Source of the DNA: Escherichia virus KFS-EC
Length of the DNA stretch: 64,000 nucleotides
Reading direction: 5' to 3' (one strand)
Sequence record: MH560358
The notes below the pieces were generated by a model that did not search any database, had not been told where the DNA came from, and saw nothing but the letters and a program-made list of their open reading frames with translations. Made by a program: the position numbers and the translations under genes. Shown here piece after piece: positions 24,511 through 36,018 of this stretch (the first letter of the stretch is position 1; every line of letters begins with the position of its first letter).

Positions 24511-25092
24511 TCATCCTCTTTTTGGAAAATTTAAATAAGCATACTCGCCAACTATTTCATGTGCTGCACGGTCATAAGCCTTAGCCGCCTCAACTTCTGT
24601 CTCAAAGTATCCTAGATGTATATTCTTTCGATTGATAACAATATACGCCTTCCACGGCTTTTTCTTGCTTGGTGATAATGATACACCTTTATATTTGCTA
24701 TGGCAAGCCTTTTTCTTTGAGACGTTAAACTGATTTTGCTGTTCGGTTGCTTCTCTCATGTTTGACGGTCTATTGTTAGTTTTGTCTTGGTCTATGTGAT
24801 CTATTCGTTCAACCTGAGTACCATACTCTAAAAACCAGACAACTCTATGTACAAACAGATTAAGTTTATGACCATTGTTGTAAAATGTAAAGTATAAATA
24901 TCCTTCTTTATGGAGACATACCCTTACCACATCACCTTTTTTGTATATGGACCCTTCTTTTCGGAATCCAGCAGCTACAGAATCCTTTAAATGGTATAAT
25001 ATTCCATCGACATGATAGAATCTACCTTTTATCGCTTTCTGTGTCTCGATATCCCAAAATTTTGTTTTTGCCACAACAAACACCACACACAA
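24511..25092 (-). CDS. HNH homing endonuclease with C-terminal AP2-like DNA-binding domain
   Basis: HRVVWFLEYG...IDHIDQDKTNNRPSNMREAT (HNH_3) plus YKGVSL...WKAYI...LGYFETEVEAAKAYD (AP2-like). Confidence 0.7.
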   Translation of the reverse strand: MCVVFVVAKTKFWDIETQKAIKGRFYHVDGILYHLKDSVAAGFRKEGSIYKKGDVVRVCLHKEGYLYFTFYNNGHKLNLFVHRVVWFLEYGTQVERIDHIDQDKTNNRPSNMREATEQQNQFNVSKKKACHSKYKGVSLSPSKKKPWKAYIVINRKNIHLGYFETEVEAAKAYDRAAHEIVGEYAYLNFPKRG

Positions 25093-25126: not shown

Positions 25127-28100
25127 ATGGCAGATTTTTCTCAACATTTCAAGGCCACCTTTGGCTTTGACGCTGGTAATGAAAAGGTCGTCAATGTAGC
25201 ATACGCAGATAAAAACACATCAACGGATGCGGTCAACGTTGAATTTTTCAATTACCATAATGGTATTACTCAGTATGACACAACTCGCGGTTATGATCAA
25301 TACGGAACTACAATCTATCAAAACCGTCCGTATTATGCAAAAGAAGATATCACAAAGCCAGCAGGTGATTTTGACCCGACTAAATGGCAAGCACTGCGCA
25401 CGGACCCACGTTGGGATTATATTGCAGCAACTTCCGGTGATACTCCTTTAAAGTCTGGTGATTATATCGCAGCAGATGGTCAATTTGCAAACTTGACTTT
25501 CTCGATGCCAACTAAACCAGCAGAGGGAGACACTATAACAGTAAAAGATATCGGTGGCAAGTGTGGTGTTAACGAATTATCGTTCTTGAGTTCAGGACAT
25601 GAGTTTTACCATAACGGTAATGTGTATAACCGAAAATGGTATTGCACTACCCCGTATGCAATGAACTATTTCATCTTTGTTCGGAATCGTTGGCATGTTT
25701 ATCAGACGGGAACAGAGCCGCGCGGTGTGTACGCACAGCCAGCGATTGATGCTATTCAAATGCAGAATGGTGATCAGGTATTTCGTCGTAGTTCGTTGGG
25801 TAATATTACCTTAGTGCTTCCTAAGTTTGCCAACAATGGCGACATGATCCAGACTACAGACCTTGACGGATTAACCGCAACCAACCACGTTACGGTTAAA
25901 GTTCATGAGCACGCAGAAGAACAATCAATTGGCACGTCCGGTCTAAAAGAGATTATTGGTAAGCGTAGCGGTCATGGTGTATTCATCTTTGACAAGACGG
26001 AAAACTTATGGCGTTTGTGGGATGGTGATCAGTCTGTTCGTCTTAAACCGATCATCGATGACACTCGCTTGCAACCTAATAGCTATGTTGCTGTATTTGG
26101 TGGTCGTGATGTTACTCTGACGCTGCCAACCAATGTCGAGCCGGGTGATCGTATTCAAGTTTCTATGCAGTATATGCACGGAAACCAGAATTGCCGTATT
26201 ATCACCCCCACAGAGGATACAAAAATCCTTATGCCGAAAAACATGGTTCAGTTTCCGAAGCGTAGCGAGTACCCATTCAACGGGACCGACACATGGAAGG
26301 AAGTGTCTGAATTGTCGTTCAATGCGGCTAGTGATTATGTACCTTATCTGGAGTTCTCTTATTCAGAAGGTGATGATGGTAAGAAATACTGGTTGGTGGC
26401 ACACGCTCATCCGATCGTAGAACGAGTAGATCCGACTCGTAAAGCGCGTGTCGGTGTAATTGCACTGGCTACCCAGACTGAAACGAATAAAAACCATGAA
26501 GAGAATCCTAGCGACGAAGTTGCAGTAACACCAAAAATGCTGGCTAATAAAACAGCCAACGAAACTCGACGCGGTATTGCTCGCATTGCGACTCAAGCGG
26601 AAACGCATCAAGATACTGGTTCCAACTTCATGGATGATGTTATCGTTACGCCTAAAAAGTTAAATGACTGTGTTGCTACCGAAGCCCGTCGTGGTGTGAT
26701 GGAAATTGCAACCCAGCACGAAACCAATGAAGGTTTAGACGATACCCGCGCTATTACTCCTAAGAAATTAGAAGAACGTCGCGCTTCCGAAGATTTAGCT
26801 GGTATTGCTGAAATTGTTCAGGCTGGCGGTAGTGCTGCCGCTCGACGTGGCGAAGCTGGTACAGGGATCTATAACATCAACGACCATGCTAAAATTGTTA
26901 CTCCACAAAACATCAACGAAGTCAAGGCGACAGAAACTTCCCGTGGTGTTGGCTATCTGGCAACTGACGCGGAAGTGCAAGGGGCTACAGAATCAACCCC
27001 GCAAGATGCTTTACTAATCACGACTCGCACGCTAACGAAACGTACTGCTACCGAATCGCGCACTGGTATCGCTGAAATTGCAACCCAGGAAGAAACAAAC
27101 TTAGGTCAAAGTGATAACCATATCATCACGCCTAAAAAGCTGCATACTCGCCGCGCAACGGAAACTTTACATGGTTTAGCAGAAATTGCAACTCAGCCGG
27201 AATTTGATGCAGGTCTTGATGATGCTCGCATTTCTACCCCATTGAAGATTAAAACCTTCTTTGAGAATGCACAGCGTTTGAAAGTAGATCCGACTCAGGG
27301 GCTTAACCTTACTGGTGATTTGTGGCAAGGTATCATGATCAGCGGTCTGGATGCAACCGAAGACACAAAAGGTGTCGCTAAAGTTGCTACTACTCAGCTT
27401 ACGGATGCTGGTCAAGATGATACTACAATCATCACGCCTAAAAAGCTGCAAGGCAAAAAAGCCACCGAAGGTAAAGAAGGTATTATCCGCGTTGGTACTC
27501 AAGACGAAACCGTCGCTGGTACTATGGACAATGTAGCAATTTCGCCTAAAAACTTCAAATATGTTGTTCAGACAGAAGAAACATGGCAAGCAACGGAAGC
27601 CCGTCGCGGATTCCTGAAAGTAGCAACACAAGAAAACTGTTTTGTTGGTGATAATCTGCAAGGTTCTACTCAAGAGCTTGATGAATATCAGCATGATGGG
27701 ATTGCGGTAACTCCGAAAGGATTAAACTACGCACTTGCTAATTTCTTACCTAAAATGGCAACCGCTCAGAATAGTTTGAAATTGGGTAACGTAGAGGCCG
27801 CTAAATGGGCGCGTAGAGACATTGACCAGACCATTGAGAGCAATTACACGTTTAATAAAAACGTTAACTTGAAGGGCGATTTAGAGTGCTTAAAATCCGG
27901 TTCCTTTGAAACTCTGTTTGTGACTAAGAACTCGACTGACGATCCGAGTAATGGTCATCTGGTATTGGGTGAGCGTGGAGTTGACGGTCACACCGGAATT
28001 ACTCTGCATGGCACAACCTTGTCAGAAGGTATGGAAAACTCATGGTCTATTATCGTTGGTGGTACTGGAACGGCGCAAGCAGTTAATAGTGATGCTATCG

Positions 28101-28867
28101 CTTTCTGTAAGATTGACGATTCTGGATCTGTTGAGCATTATGCCTTTGCTATGGAACGTGACGGCGATGCGTTAGCATATAGAGACTTCATAGCAGGTCG
28201 TAACCTGTATGCGAAACAAGGCGGTTTATATATTGTAGACCACGCCAATCCGGCAATGACTCGCTCTACAGACGGTATGTTGAATATCGGTCACGGTGGA
28301 AGTGTTAACATCAAAGCCGGTTATCAGAATCTGACTACAGAGATCGCAGGACAGAAATACCAGATCGTTCACGCAGGAAACGCAGACGAAGTTCTCGACC
28401 GTCAGTTTGTCAAGAATGCTGGCGATACGATGACCGGAAAGCTGATTATGGATAATGCGCCTATTGTTTCTGTTAAGCATGAGGCTATCGCGGCAACCGC
28501 TCCGGCAATCGGTAACATCGGTTTCTGGAACATGCGAGTAACTACCCAAAACATCAAAGAAACCTATCCAGAGAAGAAAAACGGCACATTGATGCAATGG
28601 GGTACTGATGAAAACGGCCTTACCCAAATCTGGTCGCCTGATGGTACTCATAAGCATTATATCCGTTCCGGTACAGATGGTCAATGGACCGCATGGGGCG
28701 AAATTTACACCAAACAGAACAAGCCTACCGCTCAGGAAATCGGGGCAGTTGTTGCCGAAGGTGGATTGATGAACTCTATGACGGTTCGTGACTGGATCAA
28801 GGTTGGTAATGTTAAAATTATTGCCAATAATCTGACTCGTACCGTAGATTTTATCTGGGAAGACTAA
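25127..28867 (+). CDS. 34: long tail fibre proximal subunit
   Basis: 1246 aa; repeated ATE-RRG-IAEIATQ motifs; first gene of the plus-strand tail-fibre module. Confidence 0.85.
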   Translation: MADFSQHFKATFGFDAGNEKVVNVAYADKNTSTDAVNVEFFNYHNGITQYDTTRGYDQYGTTIYQNRPYYAKEDITKPAGDFDPTKWQALRTDPRWDYIAATSGDTPLKSGDYIAADGQFANLTFSMPTKPAEGDTITVKDIGGKCGVNELSFLSSGHEFYHNGNVYNRKWYCTTPYAMNYFIFVRNRWHVYQTGTEPRGVYAQPAIDAIQMQNGDQVFRRSSLGNITLVLPKFANNGDMIQTTDLDGLTATNHVTVKVHEHAEEQSIGTSGLKEIIGKRSGHGVFIFDKTENLWRLWDGDQSVRLKPIIDDTRLQPNSYVAVFGGRDVTLTLPTNVEPGDRIQVSMQYMHGNQNCRIITPTEDTKILMPKNMVQFPKRSEYPFNGTDTWKEVSELSFNAASDYVPYLEFSYSEGDDGKKYWLVAHAHPIVERVDPTRKARVGVIALATQTETNKNHEENPSDEVAVTPKMLANKTANETRRGIARIATQAETHQDTGSNFMDDVIVTPKKLNDCVATEARRGVMEIATQHETNEGLDDTRAITPKKLEERRASEDLAGIAEIVQAGGSAAARRGEAGTGIYNINDHAKIVTPQNINEVKATETSRGVGYLATDAEVQGATESTPQDALLITTRTLTKRTATESRTGIAEIATQEETNLGQSDNHIITPKKLHTRRATETLHGLAEIATQPEFDAGLDDARISTPLKIKTFFENAQRLKVDPTQGLNLTGDLWQGIMISGLDATEDTKGVAKVATTQLTDAGQDDTTIITPKKLQGKKATEGKEGIIRVGTQDETVAGTMDNVAISPKNFKYVVQTEETWQATEARRGFLKVATQENCFVGDNLQGSTQELDEYQHDGIAVTPKGLNYALANFLPKMATAQNSLKLGNVEAAKWARRDIDQTIESNYTFNKNVNLKGDLECLKSGSFETLFVTKNSTDDPSNGHLVLGERGVDGHTGITLHGTTLSEGMENSWSIIVGGTGTAQAVNSDAIAFCKIDDSGSVEHYAFAMERDGDALAYRDFIAGRNLYAKQGGLYIVDHANPAMTRSTDGMLNIGHGGSVNIKAGYQNLTTEIAGQKYQIVHAGNADEVLDRQFVKNAGDTMTGKLIMDNAPIVSVKHEAIAATAPAIGNIGFWNMRVTTQNIKETYPEKKNGTLMQWGTDENGLTQIWSPDGTHKHYIRSGTDGQWTAWGEIYTKQNKPTAQEIGAVVAEGGLMNSMTVRDWIKVGNVKIIANNLTRTVDFIWED

Positions 28868-28900: not shown

Positions 28901-30040
28901 ATGACACAAGAGATAGAATTACGCAATACTGGAATTAAGTTTGCGCATTTCGACGAAGACTCCGCGACATTTACAAGCATTTCAGAAAACAACTCTGTGA
29001 TGTATAAGCTGGAAGTGCGCGGATCTAATGCGGATTCTTCCAAACCAGCAAGGATTAGATTTAATGGAGTGGAGATCGTCGGGACTGGCTATGAAACTGG
29101 CCTAAATTTTAAAGTTCTTACTCCAACTGGAAAACTACACGAAGAAAAGGTATTCTATGGTCGCGGTGCTGTTTTGGCAATGCGTGATTATCTTTCTTTG
29201 TTGAAAGGTGACTATATCATTGCGATGGCAACGCATGGAGAATTGTTTGCAGATCCGATAAGTGATGTTGTATTTTCTAAGATGGGATCTGTATCATTCC
29301 CGAATCACATTTTGTTACAGCAAATTCCTCGTGTATCCTATGCAGCAATTTATTCTACTAAAATGGGTAAAATTGTGTGCGAAGGGATGCAAGCAACGCA
29401 CGGAGAAGGTCAAGATTCGTCTATACAAATTGAGAAGGTTTATGATACTATAGATGATCTTGCGGTCACAGGAACACCACAACGATTTTTAGATTATCCG
29501 GTTGAGTATGTTAGCGAAGATGCCGAACATTTCGAGCTAATACAATGGCCTCATGATGAGATCAGCGCACCACTTGAATATTTTAACATAAAGGCAGGTG
29601 ACAAACTATCAATATCCTTTGAATTGTTCCGTGATAGTGCCGCAGCCGCAGCCAACGTAACAGCGCGTTTCTATCACAACTACTTCACTGATGGACAATA
29701 TCAAACTGGCGTTCGTTATAATGCCAGCCAGAAAGATCAATGGGAAAAGTTTGAAGCCGTCTATACCGTACCGGAAGGAGTTGATAGTGTTGCCACTGGT
29801 TGTATCAGATATCCAACCAACTCAAATGAAGGTATTGTTAAAATTAGAAACATACTAATAACGCCGATCAGTGGAGTCGTCAAAACTACTGGTCCTACTT
29901 CATTTGGTGTTAATGGTGTTAGAACAACTCATATTCAGGATAACGGTGATTTTACTAACCCTGTAATGAGTCTTCTTAAACTGCCTAGAGATAATAAACA
30001 CATCACATCCAACAACTTTAAAGAGTTCGATGTTGATTAA
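28901..30040 (+). CDS. 35: tail fibre hinge protein (gp35-like)
   Basis: 379 aa; position between 34 and 36. Confidence 0.6.
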   Translation: MTQEIELRNTGIKFAHFDEDSATFTSISENNSVMYKLEVRGSNADSSKPARIRFNGVEIVGTGYETGLNFKVLTPTGKLHEEKVFYGRGAVLAMRDYLSLLKGDYIIAMATHGELFADPISDVVFSKMGSVSFPNHILLQQIPRVSYAAIYSTKMGKIVCEGMQATHGEGQDSSIQIEKVYDTIDDLAVTGTPQRFLDYPVEYVSEDAEHFELIQWPHDEISAPLEYFNIKAGDKLSISFELFRDSAAAAANVTARFYHNYFTDGQYQTGVRYNASQKDQWEKFEAVYTVPEGVDSVATGCIRYPTNSNEGIVKIRNILITPISGVVKTTGPTSFGVNGVRTTHIQDNGDFTNPVMSLLKLPRDNKHITSNNFKEFDVD

Positions 30041-30201: not shown

Positions 30202-30209
30202 TATAAATA
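30202..30209 (+). promoter_or_regulatory. T4-type late promoter box TATAAATA
   Basis: Exact TATAAATA about 34 nt upstream of gene 36 ATG. Confidence 0.5.
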
Positions 30210-30242: not shown

Positions 30243-31733
30243 ATGGCAGATTTGAAACATGGATCTACTGTAGGCGGATCTCCCATTTGGACGCAAGGAA
30301 ACTTGACGATCCAGCCAGCGGGGGATCAGCTTTTCTACAAAGGTCATAAAATCTATACCGCTTTTGATAAACCTTCGGCTGCCGATTTTGATGCTGTTAG
30401 TGCTAAAGACGGTGGCACATTTCAAAAGCAGGTCCATTTTGAGGAAGGTTTAAGCGTCGGTAGTGCATCGGCTGGAGAAACCAAAAAGAACGGGATCTTT
30501 AAAGGAAATAGTGATGCGGCTAACTTTGATGGTGTAAGTTGGGGTTTCCATTCGTGGAAATCTATTGGTTTTGTTAATGCTCGTGATGATGTTATCATGG
30601 CTTATATTGACACTACCACAGGTGATTTTAAAACTAAAGGGACTATCGAAGGGACAACCATTAAAGACACAGGTCAACGCGTCTATAGCCCTGTTAATAA
30701 ACCAACGAATAATGATTTAGATTTGGTGTCTCGTCGCGGTGATACCCTCACAGGAACATATAATTTAAACACTGTCACTGTTAAACTATCGGTTGATTCG
30801 AAATTAATTGCAAGGGAACGTGATTTAATTAATTTTGATGCGACTAAGATCTATTATGGTAACGTTCTTGATACGTTGGTCTTCCGAAGTAAAGATGAGC
30901 CTACCATTTTTGTTAATGGCAGAGAAGGTCGTTTTTATCACACCAACAATAAACCAACTAAAGCCGATGTTGGGCTAGGCAATGTCACCAATGATGCACA
31001 GGTTAAACGTGCTGGTGATATTATGGAAGGTAACTTGCAAGCGCCTAGAATGTTGGCGACAAACGATCCGGCTGGTCCTAATGAATTGGTTCGTTTGAGC
31101 TACTTTGAGAGAAAATCAATGGTAGCAAATCCAACCATCATAGGAAACGTTGATTGGAACACTCTTATTAATCGCGGTATCTATCGTGTGGAAAATGCTG
31201 GGTCAGGTACTAATAAACCGTCTGATAGCTATTATAACGGCGTTTTGATGGTATATCGCCCAGAAGATGCGGTCGGTACTCGTCGAATTGTTCAGGTGTA
31301 TTATCCTGAATCTATTGACCATCCGATGTGCTGGCGTTCGTGTTCTAATGAATCATGGACTGCATGGAACTATGTAGATCACCGTAAATTGGCTGATATT
31401 CGCTATGTTAACGTAACTGGAGATACCATGACAGGACCGTTAACTGTTCCGGCTGCAAACGGTGTTAGCACAGCTAGAGGTGCATATAATGGTGATAACT
31501 ACTATGCTGGGTTAAATAGTGCCGATGGCACGGCTATGATTCACCGTATCAGCGATATTAAAGCCACTGAAAAATTGGGTATTACACATGATTCGAAAGC
31601 TGTTTTCGTTAAATCGCGTGGAAATACTCAAGCCACCGACCGCTATGAACTTTACCACGAAGGGCATAAACCTACCCCTGCCGAAGTTGGCGCGGTTCCG
31701 CTCAATGCGGTAATTGATTTTGGTACTTTCTAA
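30243..31733 (+). CDS. 36: tail fibre protein, gp36-like N-terminus with extended C-terminal region
   Basis: MADLKHGSTVGGSPIW N-terminus; 496 aa. Confidence 0.7.
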   Translation: MADLKHGSTVGGSPIWTQGNLTIQPAGDQLFYKGHKIYTAFDKPSAADFDAVSAKDGGTFQKQVHFEEGLSVGSASAGETKKNGIFKGNSDAANFDGVSWGFHSWKSIGFVNARDDVIMAYIDTTTGDFKTKGTIEGTTIKDTGQRVYSPVNKPTNNDLDLVSRRGDTLTGTYNLNTVTVKLSVDSKLIARERDLINFDATKIYYGNVLDTLVFRSKDEPTIFVNGREGRFYHTNNKPTKADVGLGNVTNDAQVKRAGDIMEGNLQAPRMLATNDPAGPNELVRLSYFERKSMVANPTIIGNVDWNTLINRGIYRVENAGSGTNKPSDSYYNGVLMVYRPEDAVGTRRIVQVYYPESIDHPMCWRSCSNESWTAWNYVDHRKLADIRYVNVTGDTMTGPLTVPAANGVSTARGAYNGDNYYAGLNSADGTAMIHRISDIKATEKLGITHDSKAVFVKSRGNTQATDRYELYHEGHKPTPAEVGAVPLNAVIDFGTF

Positions 31734-31803: not shown

Positions 31804-34566
31804 ATGGCAGATTTAAACAGAATCCAGTTTAAACGCACTAGCGCAGCCGGACGTAAACCGGATGCTGGTACGATGAATCCGGGAGAGTTGGCAATTAACT
31901 TAGCAGACCAATATCTGCTTACAAAAAATGATGGTGGGCAAATTGTTAATTTAAGCTGCCCTCCAGTTTATGACAAGAGCGTTAATGTAAAAGGTCGTGT
32001 GGTTGCAGATGACCTTATGTGGAGTAATACCGCAAACTATTTCGATGACCCGACCGCACGAAATCTTGATAAATTTGGGGCATTTCGTACTAATGATATG
32101 GATGGTCATCTAGCACTTGCTTTGCATATTCCCCATCCTAGCGGTATAAATCATGCTCGTGGGTTTGATTTTACTTATGGTTCTAACGTTGTTCCTACTG
32201 TAAAAACCTATGGTTATAACGCTGATGGTGTATTGGCATATTCATATCGCATGTATCACGAAGGTGATAAGCCTAGTCCGTCAGAATTAAATGTATACAG
32301 CAAACAAGAAGTAGACCGGATGTTCCAGAAGACCATCAACTTTGGTGTAGAAACTGGATGGTTTAAAATTGCTACCGCCTTTATTCCGCAAAATGATGGA
32401 CGTAGCTTGAAAATTAGATTGATTGGTGGAAGTGGGTGGAACGTAGGACAAACTGGACAATGTAATATTATTGAACTTGTTATAAGGACTAGCAACGGTT
32501 CGCCTAAAGGAATTAACTTTGTTGCGTATCATCATGTTTCTGGTTACGAAAATCAATTTTGTGCCATTAATACAGGTGATGACACTTATGATATCTATGC
32601 ATATTACTTCGAATTTACTAATATGGTAATGGCTGAATATCAAGCGTCCAGCGGTGTTAATTTAACTGTACTTGATCGACCTGAATATGTCGGCGAAAAA
32701 CCTGTAGCTGATCATATCTATGATGCATATACAATATACTCCTTTAACAGTTTCAGTAACCGTGGAACGTTAAATTTTGCTGGAAACCCTCAAGGCCAAT
32801 ATGACATTGAGCATTTGAACGTGCAACAAACTAACAGCAAAAAGATGTTGCGTCGCTTCCGTAGTTCTGGTCCTGCCACTATCTGGCATGAGACAGTTGA
32901 TGATAACCAGTATCGTCTTGCTACTGGATACGAAGATACAAATCAGGAATTATTGCTGACAGCAACATCCGGGTTACATGTCAAGAAATTAACATTGGAT
33001 GGCGGTGTCACTGGAAATTCTGGTATTGATATTCGTCGAGGACCAAACGAATCAAGCCATTTTAATTTCATGGATTATCGCACTGGACAAGATGTTCGTA
33101 ATGGTTGGTTTGGTTTTGGTGATGGAACAACCAAAGATTTTATTTGGTGGAACGATAACGGTCAAAACTCTATAAACCTGATTGAAGACGGTGAATTACA
33201 TATTACTGGCGGTAGAGGCCAGAAAATTGTAATGAATAGCGAAGTTGCATTATCTGAAAATGCTCGTTTGGCTGTTAAAGGTGGCAATTATGGCTTAATT
33301 TTTAGAAATGATGGCGTTGGCTTCCATATTCTTACCACAGATCTCGGTGATTCATTTGGACCGTGGAATACTCGTAGACCATTCAGCTATGATTTTGCGG
33401 ACGGTGGATTGTATTTAGGTGGTACTGCAACCGCTCGTTGTTTGCATCTGGGAATTGATGGTAGCACTCGTCTCGAAGACAACCTTTTCTTTAAAGCTGG
33501 TTCTCGTCAATCTATGGACTATATGGAACTAGTCCATTGGGGGGCAAGCAATACAGGTCGAAATAACGTTTTAAGTCTTCGTGACTCAAAAGGATTTTTC
33601 GCAGAATTTGAACGATTGGGTGATGATACCATTAAAAACACCTTCTTCGGGAAACTTAAAGTTAATCGTGGTTCTGACGCAATCGTCATGAATGCCGAAA
33701 CGGGTGATTCGTCTATATATTTGCTGGGTACTTGTGCTGATAATAACAACTGGTATATCGGTAAAGGTGGTGCTGATAATGGATTAGCGTTCTATAGCTA
33801 TGCTACTAATGCTGCTATCAATATTACAAACGCTGGTGATATCGCGCTAAGTCCAAAAGGTGTCGAAATGACTCATGTCAATAACGTTCGATTCTATGTT
33901 CATGGTGAACGTTGGACTGCTAGCCAATCTGGAGGCTGGGGCGATCAATGGGGATTAGAAGCGCCGATATTTGTCGATCATGGTTATGTTGGACCAGATA
34001 GCTATTATCCAATTATTAAAGGAAGAAGTTTAATCACCAATCAAGGGTATACAACTGCCGTCGATTTTGGTCTTCGTCGTGTTCCTCAAAATTGGGGGCA
34101 AGCTATTATTCGTGTTGGATCTGCGGATGCATCGCCAGCGGCTGGTCATCCTCAAGCTGTATTCGAGTTCCATCATGATGGTACTTTCTATTCTCCTGGT
34201 AATGGTAACTTTAACGATGTTTATATTCGTTCCGATGGTCGTCTGAAAATTAATGTTGAAGATTACGAAGAAAATGCGGTGGATAAGGTAAATAAACTCA
34301 AAGTTAAAACCTACGATAAAGTTAAATCTCTTAATGACCGAGAAGTTATAGGTCATGAGATTGGTATTATCGCACAGGATTTACAAGAGGTATTACCGGA
34401 AGCTGTTAAAACCGCAAAAATTGGTGGTCTTGATAACCCAGAAGAAATTTTAACAATTTCAAACTCCGCAGTGAACGCGCTTTTAATTAAAGCGGTCCAA
34501 GAAATGAGCGAAGAAAATAAACTTCTTCGTGAACGTCTTGCTGCAATTGAAGCTAAATTAGGGTAA
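31804..34566 (+). CDS. 37: long tail fibre distal subunit with C-terminal chaperone-like domain
   Basis: MADLNRIQFKRTSAAGRKPDAG...GELAINL N-terminus; 920 aa; C-terminal SDGRLKINVE...GIIAQDLQEVLPEAV...coiled-coil tail. Confidence 0.85.
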   Translation: MADLNRIQFKRTSAAGRKPDAGTMNPGELAINLADQYLLTKNDGGQIVNLSCPPVYDKSVNVKGRVVADDLMWSNTANYFDDPTARNLDKFGAFRTNDMDGHLALALHIPHPSGINHARGFDFTYGSNVVPTVKTYGYNADGVLAYSYRMYHEGDKPSPSELNVYSKQEVDRMFQKTINFGVETGWFKIATAFIPQNDGRSLKIRLIGGSGWNVGQTGQCNIIELVIRTSNGSPKGINFVAYHHVSGYENQFCAINTGDDTYDIYAYYFEFTNMVMAEYQASSGVNLTVLDRPEYVGEKPVADHIYDAYTIYSFNSFSNRGTLNFAGNPQGQYDIEHLNVQQTNSKKMLRRFRSSGPATIWHETVDDNQYRLATGYEDTNQELLLTATSGLHVKKLTLDGGVTGNSGIDIRRGPNESSHFNFMDYRTGQDVRNGWFGFGDGTTKDFIWWNDNGQNSINLIEDGELHITGGRGQKIVMNSEVALSENARLAVKGGNYGLIFRNDGVGFHILTTDLGDSFGPWNTRRPFSYDFADGGLYLGGTATARCLHLGIDGSTRLEDNLFFKAGSRQSMDYMELVHWGASNTGRNNVLSLRDSKGFFAEFERLGDDTIKNTFFGKLKVNRGSDAIVMNAETGDSSIYLLGTCADNNNWYIGKGGADNGLAFYSYATNAAINITNAGDIALSPKGVEMTHVNNVRFYVHGERWTASQSGGWGDQWGLEAPIFVDHGYVGPDSYYPIIKGRSLITNQGYTTAVDFGLRRVPQNWGQAIIRVGSADASPAAGHPQAVFEFHHDGTFYSPGNGNFNDVYIRSDGRLKINVEDYEENAVDKVNKLKVKTYDKVKSLNDREVIGHEIGIIAQDLQEVLPEAVKTAKIGGLDNPEEILTISNSAVNALLIKAVQEMSEENKLLRERLAAIEAKLG

Positions 34567-34604
34567 TTGGAAAGCGGGGAGAAATCTCCGCTAAGGATTC
34601 TTAT

Positions 34605-34928
34605 ATGGGATATTGGGTAAGTAGTGAAATTAATACTAAAATCGATGCTTTAAAATGGCATGTATTTGATATTCCTAACGGCTATGGTACTGCTCGTGCT
34701 GGTGTCGCTGTAATGCGTCATAATGCTGGTGGTGGGTGGTCTGATGCACATATTAACGTAGATGGTTTGACCGTTGCTCGTCGTCGTGGTGGGACCAATT
34801 GGGGATCTACTATAAATTCGTTTGTTCCTGCTGGCTGCACCGTCTCCTTTGGTTTAGGGGGTGAAGGTGGTGACTCAGAATTGCTTTTGCATGGCTTTTG
34901 TGTGTCTGGAAGTCATAAGGGGTCATGA
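34605..34928 (+). CDS. hypothetical glycine-rich protein downstream of gene 37
   Basis: 107 aa; GGGW, GGEGGD glycine-rich stretches; SD AAGGA upstream. Confidence 0.4.
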   Translation: MGYWVSSEINTKIDALKWHVFDIPNGYGTARAGVAVMRHNAGGGWSDAHINVDGLTVARRRGGTNWGSTINSFVPAGCTVSFGLGGEGGDSELLLHGFCVSGSHKGS

Positions 34929-35087
34929 TTGGGGACAGATCCATTCTTGTATTGTGCCGCAGGGAGTAACGATCACGGTAACTACAAACAGGGGTATTTC
35001 CCATCTTCGTTATAGACGCTTGAGCAACCGTTAAAAAAAGAATTAAGGAAAACTCCCAGGGAAGGGAACTACTAAGGAGAAACGGCT

Positions 35088-35306
35088 ATGGTCTATAATA
35101 TCGTCATTGGTGCTTTGTCTAATTTCGGAATGAAACTATTGTCAAAGTTAATTAGTGAAAAGATGCTCACTAAAATTTTCTTCTATTGCGCTCGTCGTCT
35201 TGCGGCTTATACCAATACGCCAATTGATGATCGTTTTGTGGAAGAACTTTATAAGGAGTTTAATAAAGATCAGTCAGAAGATAGCAACGAGCAAAATAAA
35301 AAATAG
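35088..35306 (+). CDS. hypothetical small protein (72 aa)
   Basis: ORF track; SD AAGGAGAAA upstream. Confidence 0.35.
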   Translation: MVYNIVIGALSNFGMKLLSKLISEKMLTKIFFYCARRLAAYTNTPIDDRFVEELYKEFNKDQSEDSNEQNKK

Positions 35307-35361: not shown

Positions 35362-36018
35362 ATGCAAGTTTCTGAAAAAGGGAAAGACTTTTCTATCTCA
35401 AATGTCCTGCGCGCTATTTTCACAACTAAAAGCACGGAGTTGCTCGTACTTCGTGTTTTTGCTGCCGTCGTGTTGTCCATATTAGCATTTGTCGTTTATA
35501 GTAAAAACGAGTTATTTGCGCTTTATAAAGAGACTCGTTATGAGACTTATGCTCACGTTCTCCAGGTAGAGAAAGACCGCAATTTTGATAATGCAGCACA
35601 GGAGCAGTTACAGATAGTTCATGTGTCGGCTGATGCCGATTTTTCTGCTGTTTTTAGTTTTCGTCCGAAAAACCTAAACTATTTTGTTGATTTGGTGGCA
35701 TATGAAGGAAAGTTACCGCATACAATCGATGAAAAAAATTTAGGCGGATTCCCTATCAATAAAACGAGTGAAGAATATCGTAGGCATCTTTTAGGTAAAT
35801 CCTATTTTACCGATAAAGATTTCCAGTATATTCCATCAAGAGAAAAGAAATTAGAGAGTATCGATATAGGGGTTATGTATTCTTGTCCTATATTCAATCT
35901 CGACAATGTCTATTCTGGTAGTATCTCCATTGCATGGAAGAATAAACCGGATATTGACATTGAGAATTTAGATACTCTTTGCAATCAATCTGCCAGAATC
36001 CTCGGAAGGATTAGATAA
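35362..36018 (+). CDS. t: holin (T4 t family)
   Basis: 218 aa; single N-terminal TM (VLRVFAAVVLSILAFVVY) then large periplasmic domain; position after tail-fibre genes. Confidence 0.85.
   Translation: MQVSEKGKDFSISNVLRAIFTTKSTELLVLRVFAAVVLSILAFVVYSKNELFALYKETRYETYAHVLQVEKDRNFDNAAQEQLQIVHVSADADFSAVFSFRPKNLNYFVDLVAYEGKLPHTIDEKNLGGFPINKTSEEYRRHLLGKSYFTDKDFQYIPSREKKLESIDIGVMYSCPIFNLDNVYSGSISIAWKNKPDIDIENLDTLCNQSARILGRIR

Follow-up and report, generated by a model that had tools for sequence, protein, structure and literature searches.

A peptidase S74 intramolecular chaperone domain at the C-terminus of the distal tail fibre protein gp37 of Escherichia virus KFS-EC

The fibre locus and the C-terminal domain of gp37

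The distal long-tail-fibre gene of Escherichia virus KFS-EC raises the question of what kind of domain its product ends in, and with it the questions of where the mature fibre polypeptide stops and where receptor specificity resides. The window (the whole stretch of 64,000 nucleotides of record MH560358 that was analysed) belongs to a Krischvirus (RB49-like) genome with the T4-type gene order gp34, gp35, gp36, gp37 and holin t. PHROG and Pfam matches identified gp34 (25127-28867), gp35 (28901-30040) and gp36 (30243-31733); the open reading frame that follows (31804..34566, plus strand) encodes the 920-residue precursor of the distal subunit gp37, with matches to PHROGs 1699/5667 ("long tail fiber protein distal subunit") and to the Pfam families Gp34_trimer and Peptidase_S74. 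The module is closed by a small Dc5-like gene (35088..35306, plus strand; phrog_402), whose homologue in phage kvi is annotated as Dc5, and by holin t (35362..36018, plus strand; PF11031 Phage_holin_T, E = 3.3e-60). Transcription of gp36-gp37 probably starts at a T4-type late-promoter motif, TATAAATA (30202..30209, plus strand), upstream of gp36, although the motif is suggestive by its position alone; the number of such motifs across the window was not above chance. A consensus scan of the gap between gp37 and the next open reading frame (34567-34604) found no terminator; relatives have a hairpin annotated in this gap.

Residues 428-529 of gp37 (33085..33390, plus strand) form a Gp34_trimer-like trimerisation domain (PF21446, E = 2.3e-12) that aligns with the fibre structures of T4 gp34 and Mu S (4UXE, 5YVQ). 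The gp37 proteins of the Krischviruses kvi and MIZ4 are 82-85% identical to that of the window; no other record of the exact 920-residue protein was found.

The last 111 residues of gp37, residues 810-920 with the stop codon (34231..34566, plus strand), begin with Ser810 and read SDGRLKINVEDYEE...LAAIEAKLG, the peptide quoted in a preliminary description that had likened it to self-cleaving chaperone domains and had proposed a search with the peptidase S74 profile. This search gave a match far above the gathering score: in the full-length protein, PF13884 (Peptidase_S74) scored 52.9 bits (gathering score 22; E = 4.6e-14) over residues 810-869, spanning profile positions 1-58 of 58, and it matched the isolated 111 residues with E = 1.8e-15 and 57.4 bits, while the PHROG 1699 match extends to the C-terminal end of gp37 (E = 3.8e-40). 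The domain lies at the extreme C-terminus (residues 810-920 of 920) of a fibre protein. Ser810, Asp811, Lys815, Asn817 and the core residues G854/I856/A857/Q858 were invariant among 31 homologs. The motif SDGRLK (34231..34248, plus strand) contains the predicted scissile nucleophile Ser810 and the predicted general base Lys815, assigned by conservation and by a spacing (+5) equal to that of Ser1264 and Lys1269 in T5 pb1, where the mutation S1264A stops cleavage (PMC4690869).

The predicted structure agrees with this assignment. An AlphaFold2 monomer model of residues 811-920 reached pLDDT values of 83-95, and the best PDB structures that Foldseek retrieved with it were the MyRF ICA domain (7DC3, E = 6.6e-6), the K1F chaperone (3GW6) and that of GA-1 (3GUD), with probabilities of 0.99-1.0. 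The segment also aligns with S16 gp37 (PDB 6F45, chain A), including SDRRIK. DSSP assigned model residues 187-219 to a long C-terminal helix (residues 887-919 of gp37; 34462..34560, plus strand), which by analogy with T5 pb1 and K1F (PMC4690869) is presumed to form a trimeric coiled coil that nucleates folding. The model of the tip upstream had low confidence (pLDDT 28-65), which prevented the upstream "sensor" residues described in K1F and T5 from being mapped on gp37. Profile, catalytic residues and predicted fold together confirm the domain as a peptidase S74 intramolecular chaperone, so that gp37 would be expected to mature by autoproteolysis.

The domain is also present in the gp37 proteins of kvi, MIZ4, FL38 and G37-3, and in at least 1083 phage records. 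The statement that it stands in place of a T4-type tip holds as well: T4 gp37, used as a control, matched Collar and Phage_fiber and lacked S74. Its presentation as a departure from the norm has to be reversed, as a chaperone-ended gp37 is the majority arrangement and T4 the exception; RB49, like "the vast majority of T-even-like" phages, carries a self-cleaving domain whose removal is followed by attachment of gp38 (PMC9569957; also PMC3157838).

Proposed fibre maturation and a putative separate adhesin

The cleavage site R809-S810 was placed by alignment with S16, where cleavage has been reported at DLNVS^SDRRIKK, and with the fPS phages, for which the junction DVYIR^SDGRLKI has been predicted (PMC7917993). 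The predicted mature fibre polypeptide comprises residues 1-809 (31804..34230, plus strand), and its last strand, DVYIR (34216..34230, plus strand), is the proposed adhesin docking surface; a docking role of the tip has been proposed from the S16 structure (PMC7917993). DVYIR is nearly invariant in 31 homologs; it is identical in gp38-type fibres and in most fibres followed by the gene cassette described below, and is replaced by DIYIR in the fibres of UPWr_E1, G2248 and L007. NDVYIR^SD of the window's gp37 recurs unchanged in kvi, MIZ4 and the fPS phages.

Homology with these systems suggests a course for folding, cleavage and adhesin attachment. Three nascent gp37 chains would join via the C-terminal helix, and the chaperone would then act as the template on which the intertwined beta-structure of the distal part folds; with the correct trimer in place, Ser810, activated by Lys815, would cut the bond between R809 and S810. 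The 111-residue chaperone would be released and be absent from virions, and the mature fibre of 809 residues would end in ...NDVYIR with a flat tip. On the exposed tip an adhesin encoded by another gene would dock, and the tip would not itself be the receptor-binding site; in this phage the adhesin would most likely be an RB49-type gp38 encoded at a displaced locus beyond the window. We consider it very probable that residues 810-920 are a self-releasing S74 chaperone whose departure leaves a tip that docks a separate adhesin of this kind.

Conserved catalytic residues could in principle lack activity, and the S74-like domain might then be kept uncleaved as a structural C-terminal knob; yet Ser810 and Lys815 are invariant, and cleavage does occur in homologs that share the motif, those of S16 (PMC7917993), T5 (PMC4690869) and T2/T6 (PMC3157838), so that hardly any weight is given to this reading. 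The location of the receptor-binding site deserves a longer argument. The preliminary description had placed it just upstream of the chaperone, which is at odds with the fibres of the T2, S16 and RB49 types, where release of the chaperone exposes a flat tip on which a monomeric gp38 docks and sets receptor specificity (PMC9569957, PMC7917993, PMC3157838), and with the literature on the genus Krischvirus, which assigns specificity to gp38 (PMC9569957, PMC12032242); the approximately 50 residues before the cut are, moreover, shared without a difference by kvi and MIZ4, both gp38 carriers. A mature tip that itself binds the receptor, as in T5 pb1 or the K1F endosialidase, with no separate adhesin, would fit the position of the T5 pb1 receptor-binding domain directly before its chaperone (PMC4690869), the peak of variability between the gp37 proteins of the window and kvi at residues ~600-760, as expected of a specificity region, and the outcome of tblastn searches of the 64-kb window with the gp38 proteins of kvi, MIZ4 and FL38, which gave no match. 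However, the RB49-type displaced gp38 locus maps approximately 25 kb past the end of the window, in an interval that corresponds to 161.7-162.5 kb of FL38, between open reading frames of 291 nt and 222 nt near rI/tk; the close backbone relatives PHB13, FL38 and Sf20 have a displaced gp38, and FL38 encodes its gp38 elsewhere even though the slot after its gp37 is empty. Direct binding by the tip is accordingly unlikely, and a separately encoded adhesin is preferred; its identification as the displaced gp38 relies on relatives, because the 64 kb contain no gp38 gene.

A mosaic gp37 and the gene slot behind it

A sliding comparison of 30-nt identity located a mosaic breakpoint in gp37 at 34207..34245 (no strand assigned), on the codons of the cleavage site. 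To its left, identity to MIZ4 is 87-100%; to its right, identity to G37-3 and to the E. coli prophage fibres L006 and L009 is 93-100%, and the pattern at the protein level agrees with the nucleotide breakpoint. Judged by its sequence, gp37 is a shaft and tip of the kvi/MIZ4 type joined to a chaperone of the G37-3/prophage type. The crossover at the cleavage site thus joins the tip to a heterologous chaperone; compatibility of the two is assumed.

The slot behind gp37 is occupied by a 107-residue open reading frame (34605..34928, plus strand), in which the paralog s1 (residues 1-89) is fused to part of the paralog s3 and truncated by a frameshift. In its intact form, this cassette consists of three C1q/TNF-like paralogs of approximately 100 residues in the fixed order s1-s2-s3, straight after the fibre gene; it was intact and in order at all ten comparison loci, and always downstream of S74-ended fibres, in three Krischviruses (G37-3, UPWr_E1 and G2248) and in prophages of E. 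coli and Salmonella. The window departs from this arrangement by the s1/s3 fusion, the loss of s2 and the frameshift. Residues 1-82 of the slot product are 98.8% identical to s1 of G37-3; the product has no Pfam match. Compared with G37-3, s2 has been deleted together with the stretches of s1 and s3 next to it, and overlapping blastn segments to G37-3 and a multiple alignment place the fusion point at a glycine-codon microhomology (34857..34872, plus strand). Further downstream, a GGGG run (34918..34921, plus strand; the base seen only in the window was reported at 34919) has one G more than the GGG of four relatives. The extra G leads to a premature stop at 34926-34928; without it, the open reading frame would have 143 codons for amino acids and end at 35034. 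This base may be a sequencing error rather than real. The rest of s3 (34922..35034, plus strand; within the open reading frame 34861..35034) lies out of frame, ends in ...HDWGQIHSCIVPQGVTITVTTNRGISHLRYRRLSNR and a stop, and is near-identical to s3 of G2248. These features suggest that the slot holds a decayed cassette.

Other interpretations of the slot gene were considered and rejected. As a divergent gp38 it found no match in a BLASTP comparison with kvi gp38, and none of the 31 members of its family matched PF05268 (GP38) or PF21721 (Gp38_N), even at E up to 10. Fusions of the small domain to fibre proteins were rejected as well: the three giant matches in a deep HMM search proved to be ankyrin, NHL and repeat artefacts. 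As a side observation, M-[GA]-x-W in the slot family recalls the tryptophan prong PGWIGSSA, a motif-level hint that loses force because distant family members have Y, L or N at position 4.

The s1/s3 hybrid, with 107 residues or with 143 if the extra G is disregarded, might still function at the processed tip, perhaps in homotrimeric form, either as a cap or as an adhesin: the open reading frame retains the N-terminus of s1 along with the greater part of the predicted beta-sandwich, and the cassette from which it derives shows strict linkage to S74-ended fibres and occurs in the Krischviruses G37-3 and G2248, which lack gp38 at both known loci, the two that were checked. The conserved order at all ten other loci speaks against such a function, as here s2 is gone and s1 has a foreign last strand; the product is truncated by the frameshift, no record of the exact 107-residue hybrid was found elsewhere, and the s1/s3 junction was absent from the viral and metagenome contigs searched. 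A functional hybrid is for these reasons improbable, and the slot is better read as the decayed cassette. For the intact cassette, a full-text literature search that included the Krischvirus papers found no description within the literature searched. It is conceivable, although we hold this only tentatively, that s1, s2 and s3 form an undescribed heterotrimeric C1q/TNF-like cap that replaces gp38 on the cleaved tip, and that recombination at DVYIR^SD exchanges this module between Krischviruses, which are virulent, and temperate prophages of enterobacteria; the window would then record one such exchange, followed by decay.

Significance and comparison with known systems

An S74 chaperone at the end of gp37 is already known and is standard for long tail fibres of the T2, S16 and RB49 types. 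Recognising the domain averts two mis-annotations, that of all 920 residues as a virion protein and that of a receptor site at the gp37 C-terminus. For host-range prediction and fibre engineering, mature gp37 is by analogy expected to end at R809, and specificity should be encoded by an adhesin gene of its own that has to be sought beyond the window; the cleavage junction would offer a natural recombination seam for swapping chaperone-plus-adhesin modules. If the cassette is indeed an alternative adhesin, it would constitute a second, unannotated class of specificity determinants in T-even-like phages and in E. coli and Salmonella prophages, and this side observation could outweigh the chaperone finding in importance.

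T4 gp37 occupies the same position in the fibre and shares the Gp34_trimer-like domain; its C-terminus, however, carries the Collar and Phage_fiber needle domains, both absent from the window's gp37. T4 gp37 works with the chaperones gp38, which acts in trans, and gp57A. Searches of the window by tblastn with the C-terminus of T4 gp37 and with T4 gp38 gave no significant match. The K1F endosialidase, the GA-1 neck appendage and T5 pb1 belong to the same Pfam family and share the Ser/Lys+5 dyad and the predicted fold with a terminal coiled-coil helix (PMC4690869); in these proteins the chaperone comes directly after the domain that binds the receptor or acts as an enzyme, whereas the end of the T-even fibre is a docking site. 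For the cassette paralogs, the analogue would be the trimeric C1q/TNF-like head domains of C1q A/B/C, collagen VIII NC1 and BclA.

The gp37-gp38 tip of S16 (6F45) has the SD-R-K motif and the GxIAQ core in common with the C-terminus described here; approximately 111-113 residues are released, and the tip then receives gp38 through tryptophan "prongs" (PMC7917993). The S16 chaperone differs in its identity of only ~30% and in the residue before the cut, Ser in S16 and Arg here. The fPS phages have an identical junction, DVYIR^SDGRLKI (PMC7917993), and chaperones that are ~63-64% identical; they are members of Tequatrovirus with gp38 immediately downstream, unlike the window. RB49 and other Krischviruses are counterparts from the same genus: in its first 20 kb the window is 95-97% identical to them in nucleotide sequence, and they have the same gene order and the same S74 arrangement (PMC9569957); in contrast to the RB49 type, gp37 of the window is mosaic, and it is adjoined not by gp38 but by the broken remnant of a cassette.

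The C-terminal domain of gp37

The translation of positions 34231-34566 agrees exactly with the peptide quoted in the preliminary description and begins with Ser810 of gp37, the precursor of the distal long tail fibre; the putative cleavage junction reads NDVYIR-SDGRLKI. The whole of the Pfam profile PF13884 (Peptidase_S74) is matched by gp37 residues 810-869, with 52.9 bits where the gathering score is 22 (E 4.6e-14), and PHROG families of distal fibre subunits align with gp37 as far as their C-terminal ends. In an alignment of homologs (n = 31), S810, D811, K815 and N817 were invariant, together with the core residues G854, I856, A857 and Q858; Ser810 and Lys815 have the same Ser/Lys+5 spacing as the pair Ser1264/Lys1269 of T5 pb1, where the mutation S1264A abolishes cleavage (PMC4690869). 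In the AlphaFold2 model of residues 811-920 (pLDDT 83-95), an alpha/beta unit is accompanied by a helix spanning 887-919; the solved structures that match this model best were 7DC3 (MyRF ICA domain; E 6.6e-6), 3GW6 (chaperone of the K1F endosialidase) and 3GUD (chaperone of GA-1). The segment was also aligned, SDRRIK motif included, to 6F45 chain A, the tip of S16 gp37, which represents a processed homolog. These four independent tests (profile, catalytic residues, fold, and processed homolog) identify gp37 residues 810-920 as an intramolecular chaperone, and they bear out the earlier suggestion that the C-terminus resembles self-cleaving chaperone domains, for which a peptidase S74 profile search had been proposed.

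By homology, the C-terminal helices of gp37 would trimerise, and the chaperone would then template the intertwined distal fold; with Lys815 as activator, Ser810 would cut the R809-S810 bond and release 111 residues, leaving an 809-residue fibre with the terminus DVYIR. This succession of trimerisation, templated folding, cleavage and release is deduced from knowledge of the family; the observations made here are confined to sequence and model features.

The exposed fibre end and the location of gp38

The first 20 kb of the window share 95-97% identity with PHB13, Sf20, RB49, and FL38; the window is a portion of a Krischvirus genome (RB49-like, Straboviridae). The fibre module genes occur in T4 order, with gp34 (25127-28867), gp35 (28901-30040), gp36 (30243-31733), and gp37 (31804-34566; 920 aa), followed by a 107-aa ORF (34605-34928), a Dc5-like gene (35088-35306) and holin t (35362-36018). 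TATAAATA motifs, the T4 late-promoter consensus, were found at 24893-24900 and 30202-30209, directly 5' of gp34 and gp36; the count of motifs of this type in the window (3 vs. 5.4 expected) is not above chance. The Pfam domain ILEI weakly matches the gp35-like hinge protein, below the threshold (20 bits vs. a cut-off of 27; E 9.8e-4).

The preliminary description had placed receptor binding just upstream of the chaperone. In the Krischvirus lineage, the exposed end of gp37 probably serves a separate adhesin as a docking surface and is not itself the receptor-binding site; over the ~50 residues that precede the cut, the gp37 of the window is identical to that of kvi and MIZ4, which carry gp38 of 259-261 aa (PF05268 and PF21721) directly 3' of gp37. 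The initial observation is confirmed, and its interpretation partly supported. No gp38 of any type was found in the 64-kb window, which is not decisive since the displaced locus would lie, by synteny, ~25 kb past the right end of the window. The gp38 gene is displaced in RB49 (PMC3157838); in FL38 it was located at 161,725-162,510, ~55 kb from gp37, and displaced copies also occur in PHB13, Sf20, GEC-3S, and others. Three states are seen among Krischviruses: gp38 adjoins gp37 (kvi, MIZ4); the slot directly 3' of gp37 is empty and gp38 is displaced by ~55 kb, near rI/tk (FL38, PHB13, and others; FL38 loci L014:7378-11137 and L017:226-1011); or a cassette of small genes fills the slot and at the displaced locus gp38 is precisely lacking (G37-3, L018:3628-4201; G2248, L019:961-1534). 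Near this locus, G2248 carries an extra hypothetical gene of 714 aa on the minus strand (L019:2894-5038) that is absent there in G37-3 and FL38.

A three-gene cassette and its probable remnant in a mosaic gp37 region

In the Krischviruses G37-3, UPWr_E1 and G2248, three tandem ~100-aa genes, s1, s2 and s3, replace gp38 in the slot (comparison loci L003:4501-5407, L004:4501-5401, and L005:4501-5407). The triad also occurs in prophages of E. coli and Salmonella with a siphovirus-like layout, where it lies 3' of a fibre of 1031-1228 aa that ends in an S74 domain (L006-L009:6001-6907; L010/L011:5308-6300; L013:5698-6656); throughout these phages and prophages, the order s1-s2-s3 is fixed, always behind an S74-ended fibre gene. 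The three proteins are paralogs of one another: a ten-sequence alignment shows no variation at M1, at W4 or in an F-x-IPNG motif. No Pfam family was found for them, and they weakly match only a PHROG with unknown function. In the AlphaFold2 model of a small paralog (pLDDT 83), a sandwich of seven strands comes after an N-terminal helix, and a C1q/TNF-like jelly-roll is predicted for all three. Of 5426 complete E. coli genomes, 25 contain the triad, which is annotated there as "hypothetical protein (x3)"; the small-paralog family is tiny, and in 1.84 billion proteins it forms 18 clusters at 50% identity. An independent frameshifted s1 variant in public assemblies (P0011; 112 aa) shows that small paralog genes decay in other lineages too.

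In G37-3 and G2248, gp38 was found neither in the slot nor at the displaced locus; at the latter, the flanking sequences share 94-96% identity with FL38 and gp38 is precisely missing. Since these two phages lack gp38 at both known loci, cassette and gp38 look mutually exclusive. The triad may form an alternative heterotrimeric adhesin cap that replaces gp38 on the processed tip.

In sliding-window comparisons, gp37 shares 87-100% identity with MIZ4 up to ~34236, and 93-100% identity with G37-3 and E. coli prophage fibres from ~34237 on; the crossover therefore falls on the codons of the cleavage junction (breakpoint 34207-34245, MIZ4/kvi-like on the 5' side and G37-3/prophage-like on the 3' side). 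The chaperone and all sequence 3' of it come from another lineage than shaft and tip, and the comparison suggests that a virulent phage exchanged sequence with resident prophages. In the gp38 slot (34605-35034), a glycine-codon microhomology (34857-34872) joins s1 residues 1-89 to the central part of s3, s2 is deleted, and an extra G in the run 34918-34921 truncates the hybrid to 107 aa; no second copy of this hybrid was found in any other collection searched. The truncated slot ORF reflects either the decay of a remnant or a sequencing error in the homopolymer. On the most economical reading, an RB49-like phage with a gp38-type tip would have taken up a segment carrying chaperone and cassette, either from a phage like G37-3 or from a prophage of its host; the generically working chaperone would then have been kept, and the cassette left to decay because adhesion was supplied by gp38 encoded elsewhere.

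Comparison with known fibres

A self-cleaving chaperone on gp37 is already known and is ordinary for the genus Krischvirus; the cassette is the sole element that might be new. The S74 domain can be detected in no fewer than 1083 phage records; many gp37 genes are among them, as are T5-like fibres and PblB proteins of streptococci. One called protein of 303 aa in an E. coli record (P0041) combines PF13884 with PF05268 and PF21721, that is, chaperone and gp38, and could be a gene-call read-through or a genuine fusion. A giant NHL-repeat protein (P0081; 3591 aa) with a C-terminal Peptidase_S74 at residues 3498-3550 illustrates that the chaperone also occurs on a beta-propeller protein of very large size that is not fibre-like. 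Proteolytic cleavage of gp37 followed by gp38 capping was described for T2 and T6 by Trojet et al. (PMC3157838). The earlier statement that a T4-type tip is missing holds: nothing in the window was found to correspond to the T4 tip or to the gp38 chaperone of T4. T4 gp37, which served as negative control, matches Collar and Phage_fiber without S74.
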